DNA from: Eledone cirrhosa
Taxonomy: Eukaryota
Length of the DNA stretch: 64,000 nucleotides
Direction of reading: 5' to 3'
Assembly (NCBI GenBank): GCA_964016885.1
Contig: OZ024743.1
Coordinates: 353,524,001 to 353,588,000, forward strand
The translations under genes were made by a program, and so were the position numbers. Shown in pieces: positions 33,703 through 33,796 of this stretch. The notes beneath the pieces are model-generated. The model saw only the letters and a program-made list of their open reading frames with translations. It made no database searches and was not told the origin of the DNA. Every line of letters starts with the position of its first letter. Positions within the stretch are counted from its first letter, which is position 1.

Positions 33703-33796
33703 ACCCCTTGAGAAGATCGGCTATTTAAATACCAGGATAAATTTTCATTTAGTCCAGAATTAGCCGTCGAAACGGCTTGAGCTCAGCTGTCGGGGT
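33703..33796 (+). ncRNA. Type I hammerhead ribozyme, U3-A8 variant (family A, right arm)
   Basis: ACCCC-TTGAGAA-GA(T)CGGCTA...TAGCCGTC-GAAA-CGGC T TGAGCTCA GCTG-TC-GGGGT; GUC triplet. Confidence 0.8.

Follow-up and report, generated by a model that had tools for sequence, protein, structure and literature searches.

The 3–8 core pair of hammerhead ribozymes in a Penelope-like element lineage of Eledone cirrhosa

The hammerhead ribozyme in the terminal repeats of a Penelope-like element (PLE) of Eledone cirrhosa seems to be a weak, helpful-but-dispensable RNA-processing element, and this is the account we favour for the hammerheads at 33703, 32481 and 56503 of the window, i.e., the whole 64,000-nt stretch of DNA analysed. 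The hammerhead is taken to be dispensable because its 3–8 pair went through U·G, U-A, C·A and again U-A while the element multiplied; cleavage is predicted from the motif, and self-cutting is likely to be only loosely needed for copying of the element. The chances are about even that the family is a dated natural record of one lineage walking its 3–8 pair through these four states, in which more than 1,200 copies and several source elements were broken-paired and the pair and fold were later repaired. If true, this would be in vivo evidence of long PLE spread with a crippled ribozyme later restored by selection, and the family would offer a ready series of natural variants for testing the purpose of PLE hammerheads. 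With ordered natural cores and an intact coding copy in one genome, cleavage rate and copy number are comparable, and such a comparison would test directly whether PLE spread requires self-cleavage. Searches that demand a paired 3–8 miss about one quarter of the family. U3-A8 in PLE hammerheads has itself already been published, and what deserves attention is how the core pair changed along the lineage; in the literature covered, which leaves out most subscription journals and the supplements of PMC4209133 and of the preprint cited below, no amplified C3·A8 phase followed by reversion was reported. The usual hammerhead position numbering is used throughout.

Hammerheads in the window

The window is a microsatellite-rich stretch of a 3.0-Gb genome. 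Four motifs proposed in an earlier note were confirmed in place and on the strands claimed, with the core, the GAAA and the GUC triplet reading as described in all four:

33703–33796, plus strand: type I hammerhead of the youngest subfamily (I) of the Hydra-type PLE, with U3 at 33708 and A8 at 33713
Between 33791 and 33792, plus strand: predicted cut of the 33703 hammerhead
32481–32574, minus strand: hammerhead of identical sequence, in the inverted arm of the insertion that also holds 33703, with U3 at 32569 and A8 at 32564
Between 32486 and 32485, minus strand: predicted cut of the 32481 hammerhead
56503–56598, plus strand: hammerhead of the old subfamily D of the same PLE lineage, U3-U7-A8, with a longer, G-C-rich stem II
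About 56335–56625, plus strand: PLE copy around the 56503 hammerhead
659–748, minus strand: hammerhead of a separate family, U3-U7-A8, with a palindromic loop-less stem III (dimer type)
Between 664 and 663, minus strand: predicted cut of the 659 hammerhead

Judged from their sequence, these are real type I hammerheads with U3/A8, whose cleavage is predicted. All four have the same layout of a 5-bp stem I, UUGA(G/U)AA, G10.1-C11.1, stem II, GAAA, a stem III of 5–6 bp and GUC; U4 G5 A6 N7, A9, G12 A13 A14, A15.1-U16.1 and H17 are present in each, three helices surround the core in type I order with stem I open-ended, and the 3–8 pair is Watson-Crick (U-A) in every copy. With a strict type I descriptor that leaves positions 3 and 8 unconstrained, exactly these four matches were obtained in the 64 kb and 0 in 200 block-wise dinucleotide shuffles. 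The minimum-energy fold is a three-way junction for 33703/32481 and for 56503, and for 659 this holds for the centroid fold only; the fold z-scores are modest (−0.6, −1.7 and −2.1), and the hammerhead fold makes up just 0.5% of the ensemble for 33703. No hammerhead match was returned by Rfam for 33600–33900 at E ≤ 10, nor was there a hammerhead among the 150 of 279 matches listed for the whole window, so that the copy tested (33703) does escape a standard search, as had been predicted. The description of U3-A8 as a known natural variant was also correct, since it was in print in 2011 (PMC3088659) and, for PLEs, in 2014 (PMC4209133). The arms bearing 32481 and 33703 are 99.7% identical over 337 nt and form one inverted insertion, and the four motifs are three sequences from two families. 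Their attribution to a single retroelement lineage thus stands in part: they are hammerheads of retroelements, lying in pLTRs, and the two families are unrelated.

Several other repeats are present in the same stretch. A canonical C3-G8 minimal hammerhead with a palindromic stem III, belonging to a third repeat family, occurs at 62229–62281 (+) and also near position 1859 of locus L101, and a weaker hammerhead candidate lies at about 58709. A 66-nt direct repeat at 24630–24830 has CUGAUGA on the minus strand and a weak hammerhead-like fold, and is probably no hammerhead. Copies of a repeat of ~400–510 nt with 95–98% identity are found at 7524–8036, 30784–31185, 31246–31641, 31708–32219 and 59005–59289, three of them in partial tandem with microsatellite between, a PLE-like arrangement. 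A SINE-like repeat of ~180 nt is abundant in both orientations at 85–95% identity (26409–26599, 26802–27010, 29792–30012, 44282–44602, 45001–45187, 46405–47477, 53404–53550, 55547–55760, 57004–57200 and 60705–60995).

Carrier element and a second, non-coding family

An autonomous PLE behind the motifs, the identification of which had been called for, was found at locus L037 through physical linkage of hammerhead and ORF. This intact copy consists of an inverted arm followed by a hammerhead, an open 718-aa frame and a second hammerhead; the ORF begins 193 nt after the predicted cut, and the second hammerhead lies 3,118 nt after the first. The protein, whose motifs were read from the translation, has RT motifs, DKT, a CNCPDRSIC linker, a GIY-YIG-type motif (VIY...YIG), and CxxC and CxH near its end, and CCHH is absent; Pfam recognised no domain in this ORF, and 2,219 full-length relatives were found. 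A single ORF with RT and C-terminal GIY-YIG is the composition of an EN+ element, and the PLE architecture is present as well, with a pLTR partial tandem, an inverted 5′-truncated arm and an optional tail, the insertions lying in (TA)n. Marks of the Hydra clade are DKT, the CxCx5C linker, the lack of CCHH, and CxxC and CxH round E and N residues; WFNPP and KLSYS of the L037 protein also stand in the Hydra alignment of PMC8557442. RWR takes the place of the Hydra RWK, and the unit measures 3.1 kb in L037, most copies having one of about 3.6 kb. Matching against the published clade description points to a Hydra-type PLE. The insertion that carries two of the window hammerheads is composed of two arms:

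33310–33888, plus strand: plus arm of a 5′-truncated PLE insertion, with 3′ non-coding region, hammerhead, ~97-nt tail and (TA)n target end
32466–33309, minus strand: inverted arm of the same insertion, ORF-less and with the short 3′ end, which lies in (TA)n ~19 nt beyond the predicted cut

The whole insertion (32466–33888) is 5′-truncated and ORF-less and is 92–94% identical to L037. Subfamily D, represented by 56503, has 115 matches genome-wide to its own pattern, and ORF-linked copies of the old subfamily that includes 56503 are 67–76% identical to the L037 protein. The upstream flank of the youngest subfamily gives no alignment with the oldest one, and the tail has been conserved over the whole span between these two. 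More distant Hydra-like PLE families with 40–55% protein identity also occur in the genome (L075:2676–3080, L095:1184–2804, L096, L101 and L111), and L095 and L026 carry a C3-G8 hammerhead of another family. An apparently intact two-ORF non-LTR retrotransposon lies at 1474–7043 (+) of the window, its ORF1 (704 aa) having no Pfam match and its ORF2 (1,204 aa) containing AP endonuclease, RT and zf-RVT; this LINE-type element is unrelated to the hammerheads and was ruled out as their partner on the ground of the physical linkage between hammerhead and PLE ORF.

The hammerhead at 659 belongs to a different kind of repeat:

584–1100, minus strand: partial unit of a non-coding tandem repeat of ~591–595 nt (retrozyme-like), carrying the 659–748 hammerhead

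Its hammerhead has 6,841 genome matches, mostly in arrays with a spacing of 588–595 nt and often inverted. The core is U3-A8 in 99 of 100 among the matches listed, with one U3·G8, and on these sequences U3-A8 is to be regarded as fixed in the 659 family. Each of the non-coding tandem units has a type I hammerhead, as is required of a retrozyme. When the unit was compared with 122 PLE proteins (tblastn, E ≤ 0.01), no coding similarity was found, and blastn against the L037 DNA gave nothing alignable; no link of the family to the PLE was seen at this level, and a PLE fragment near L075 lies beyond a microsatellite. Arrays of the family (L065, L075) are often inverted blocks in (TA)n that resemble PLE insertions, which suggests by analogy that a PLE protein may mobilise them. 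The 659 family is likely to be a retrozyme that would cut as a dimer and borrow a PLE protein.

The 3–8 pair through the lineage

The PLE family (family 1) was counted with a genome pattern in which positions 3, 7 and 8 were free, and 5,344 full matches were obtained against 0 for the reversed control; inverted arms are counted separately and old diverged copies are under-counted in this figure, and U4-A6, A9 and GAAA are preset in the genome patterns, of which the four window copies are independent. U3-A8 is present in 3,990 of the 5,344 full copies and C3 in 1,252, with A8 in 99 of 100 among the C3 matches listed, which corresponds to about 1,240 C3·A8 copies, ~23% of the family. G8 occurs in 48 copies, all listed (40 U3·G8, 7 C3-G8 and 1 A3·G8), C3-G8 not being enriched, with 7 observed against 11 expected under independence; in an older subfamily G8 was read in 17 of 22 matches, 6 D-type rows having been set aside. 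The proposal that the lineage had fixed U3-A8 fails on the 1,252 copies with C3, and positions 3 and 8, which had been said to change together, vary independently among the copies of family 1, as the rarity of C3-G8 and the U3·G8 state of the older subfamily attest; this is the very outcome that the earlier note had named as refuting its claim. That one lineage fixed U3-A8 as a strictly compensated, rate-tuning pair is consequently very improbable: most copies do have U3-A8, which is also fixed in the 659 family, but nearly a quarter of family 1 is C3·A8, the two families have no alignable sequence in common, and rate tuning is hard to reconcile with a long mismatched phase.

The differences between the stems had also been read as compensatory, and this was borne out for one stem. 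Within the main family, stem II covaries, 3 of its pairs having changed on both sides among 37 chosen copies, and 0 of 500 shuffles reach its covariation score, although the shuffle control ignores relatedness; in the same copies stem I had no compensated variation and the 3–8 pair had zero both-side changes. As 659 belongs to an unrelated family, its differences in stems I and II, which had been cited as compensatory, are no homologous covariation. In the alignment of the 37 copies 86% of the cells are paired, and A9, G10.1-C11.1, GAAA and A15.1-U16.1 are invariant (A9 and GAAA being preset in the patterns), so the fold has been conserved though the ORF of the youngest subfamily is 67–76% identical to the oldest copies.

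The order of the core states was read from a tree of the ORF end and the adjacent 3′ region of ORF-linked copies, hammerhead excluded, with 33 taxa and a root on the two most divergent old copies; 2 of 35 rows were dropped before the clade test (one a C3 copy occurring sporadically in a U3 subfamily, the other a copy with a deletion and a long branch), and the copies for the tree and for the inverted pairs were picked from lists, non-randomly. The tree is a ladder U·G → U-A → C·A → U-A, which the 35-copy version also shows. A pair of old U3·G8 copies and a single member of the G8 subfamily come first; two copies with U3-A8 follow, then fourteen with C3·A8 that branch off step by step, and finally fourteen younger ones with U3-A8, the youngest U3-A8 copies being nested inside the C3·A8 copies. 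The C3 label changes twice on the tree, each time on a branch with 100% bootstrap, and a single C3 clade was rejected (p-AU 0.00018). The divergence between arms in 33 inverted pairs agrees with this order, being 6.5% for U·G (n = 3), 2.9% and 3.5% for C·A (n = 4 and 12), and 1.4–2.0% and 1.0% for the later U-A (n = 7 and 5), and the older U3-A8 subfamily F, at 1.6% (n = 2), is out of order. In 16 of 16 inverted pairs with C3·A8 that state is found in both arms and was therefore already in the template. In a pLTR tree 75 of 148 copies remained and the old subfamilies dropped out, and reliance is placed on the ORF tree because a 125-column tree was poorly resolved, some old U-A copies falling within the C·A group. 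The 3–8 pair thus appears to have been broken through several successive source elements.

A C·A mismatch at 3–8 is expected to cost much cleavage activity. The documented exchange mutants of this pair, in the available text of the literature consulted, are C3G and G8C only. In predicted folds of isolated pieces of ~95 nt, the mean pairing probability of stem I was 0.38–0.45 for C3·A8 copies (n = 35), which are predicted to misfold with a slipped stem I and the GAAA buried in a competing hairpin, and 0.94–0.98 for the U3-A8 groups, the youngest subfamily having the most open core (0.88). It may be asked whether the element depended on cleavage at every stage, with C3·A8 retaining sufficient activity; a protonated C·A wobble could account for this, as could help from the element's protein or a shifted register that pairs C3 with G7 and skips position 7. 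The predicted misfolding speaks against this, and we hold it to be doubtful, though it is the more serious of the competing explanations. Position 7 is G in more than 90 of 100 among the C3 matches listed and is variable in older U3 subfamilies, which would suit the shifted register, but G7 persists after the return to U3 and may be simple inheritance. The other core bases are all fixed through the C·A phase, and the anole PLE hammerhead, in the account available from PMC11167929, cut only with protein present; both favour continued cutting.

Copy ends, the role of cleavage and known systems

The ends of the copies indicate what RNA was copied. Among 160 full copies, 157 continue beyond the predicted cut and terminate at either of two points, ~19 nt or ~97 nt downstream of it (85 short and 72 tailed), and the copied RNA therefore held the whole hammerhead, so that the template would have been an uncut precursor or a re-ligated circle, two sources that the sequence cannot separate. 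The 5′ ends are more often truncated: the 3′ half of the motif has 40,992 genome matches against 5,344 full copies, and among the 3′-half matches listed 24 of 30 are truncated, 22 of these 24 stopping 35–48 nt upstream of the cut, in stem II. Because the stops cluster there, the motif marks a strong reverse-transcription stop, whatever its catalytic state. Copies truncated in stem II frequently have a fold-back arm, and the window contains examples:

8305–8442, plus strand: short PLE copy, 5′-truncated inside hammerhead stem II, with tail
11430–11645: fold-back pair of copies truncated in stem II, minus arm 11430–11502 and plus arm 11497–11645
14483–14841: two copies truncated in stem II with (TA)n between, minus 14483–14619 (tailed) and plus 14776–14841 (short end)

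As an observation in its own right, most PLE copies stop inside stem II, which leaves about 41,000 short, often fold-back insertions.

Junctions at the cut site, where truncated copies should begin if cut RNAs had been copied, were also counted. No RNA record was listed for 33475–33890, which bears neither for nor against expression. For family 1, a hand count of the 5′ junctions at 54 loci among the matches listed (100 of 442) gave 31 at the cut, 4 ambiguous, 7 one base in and 12 spread over −3 to −12, and cut-site junctions were also seen in C·A-era types. In a downstream control of 57 loci among the matches listed (100 of 1,116), per-base rates 5–14 nt downstream were similar, and direct (TA)n joins numbered 4 at the cut against about 2 per position downstream; in the 659 family, 35 loci gave 4 junctions at the cut and 3 at −6. 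Extra G bases at the junctions mean that the GGGG run can funnel junctions to the cut site. The excess of cut-site junctions over those just upstream in family 1 is suggestive, but it is a step with no spike and did not survive the controls. The junctions in C·A-era types could mean that C·A still cuts, which would support a need for cleavage throughout, but the signal lacks a clear spike and is absent in the 659 family.

The same ends and stops bear on a further possibility, namely that the motif was kept as a reverse-transcriptase structure (binding, start-site choice, stopping) after catalysis had been lost, the core bases lying in a protein-bound region. Both 3′ ends are just downstream of the motif, truncation is concentrated 35–48 nt upstream of the cut, and the tail is conserved across subfamilies, all of which is compatible with it. 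What has stayed invariant is the set of bases required for catalysis, A9 and U4-G5-A6 (pattern-fixed and hence partly circular) among them, and the reversion at position 3 restores a pair with a known catalytic role; with these objections, such a purely structural role is improbable.

A weak and dispensable hammerhead would accommodate these observations as follows. Both copy ends would be internal reverse-transcription starts, as reported in vitro for the anole PLE in PMC11167929, and the RNA copied would be the uncut precursor or the re-ligated circle. Through cutting, RNA of unit length would be released from read-through transcripts; this release would favour the fold over the long run, each round not requiring a cut. 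Cutting that is helpful but unneeded per insertion would thus leave the fold kept in the long term and a spell with a broken 3–8 pair tolerated. According to PMC11167929, hammerhead mutants left PLE insertion in vitro unaffected, and this dispensability would, by analogy, agree with the broken-pair phase. As counterpoints, position 3 went back to U and the remaining core bases were conserved over the long term, and both argue that cleavage matters.

Natural U3-A8 hammerheads were described by Perreault et al. (2011, PMC3088659), where they are stated to be active in vitro; they have the same compensated 3–8 pair and are, as presented there, isolated examples without a lineage history. U3-A8 minimal hammerheads were reported for Cercyon PLEs in Schistosoma mansoni, with about 1,300 matches, by Cervera and De la Pena (2014, PMC4209133), who also proposed a circle route for PLE hammerhead RNA. 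The family studied here resembles the Cercyon elements in having a type I hammerhead in PLE pLTRs, U3-A8, a short stem I, a long stem II bulged near its base and opposite-orientation copies close by. Unlike in Cercyon, stem III is a true helix of 5–6 bp with a palindromic loop, the stem II loop is ~35 nt, and there are large C3·A8 and U3·G8 subfamilies, whereas the available text of PMC4209133 describes no such mismatched subfamilies. Animal non-LTR retrozymes (Cervera and De la Pena 2020, PMC7229834; bioRxiv 10.64898/2026.07.22.740005) have in common with the 659 family that they are non-coding, that each tandem unit carries a type I hammerhead, and that they are scattered as short arrays; the 659 family differs in its unit of ~590 nt, compared with ~170–400 nt (PMC7229834), in its U3-A8 core and in its PLE-like inverted arrays.

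The Hydra clade of Craig et al. (2021, PMC8557442) shares with the element the C-terminal GIY-YIG, DKT, the CxCx5C linker, the lack of CCHH, CxxC and CxH near the C-terminus, (TA)n targets, a hammerhead near the 3′ end, and inverted 5′-truncated arms and a tail. In contrast, the element has RWR and not RWK, a unit of 3.1–3.6 kb compared with under 3 kb, and a tail of ~80 nt compared with 30–40; 26 of 26 Hydra rows in File S2 of PMC8557442 are C3-G8 with a minimal palindromic stem III, and that paper calls it unclear what hammerheads do in endonuclease-bearing PLEs. PAc Poseidon of Anolis (PMC11167929) is similar in its hammerhead just 5′ of the ORF, its two 3′ ends past the cut and its AT-rich targets, but it belongs to another PLE clade and has a C3-G8 core, and its start codon lies inside the hammerhead, whereas the ORF described here starts 193 nt after the predicted cut.
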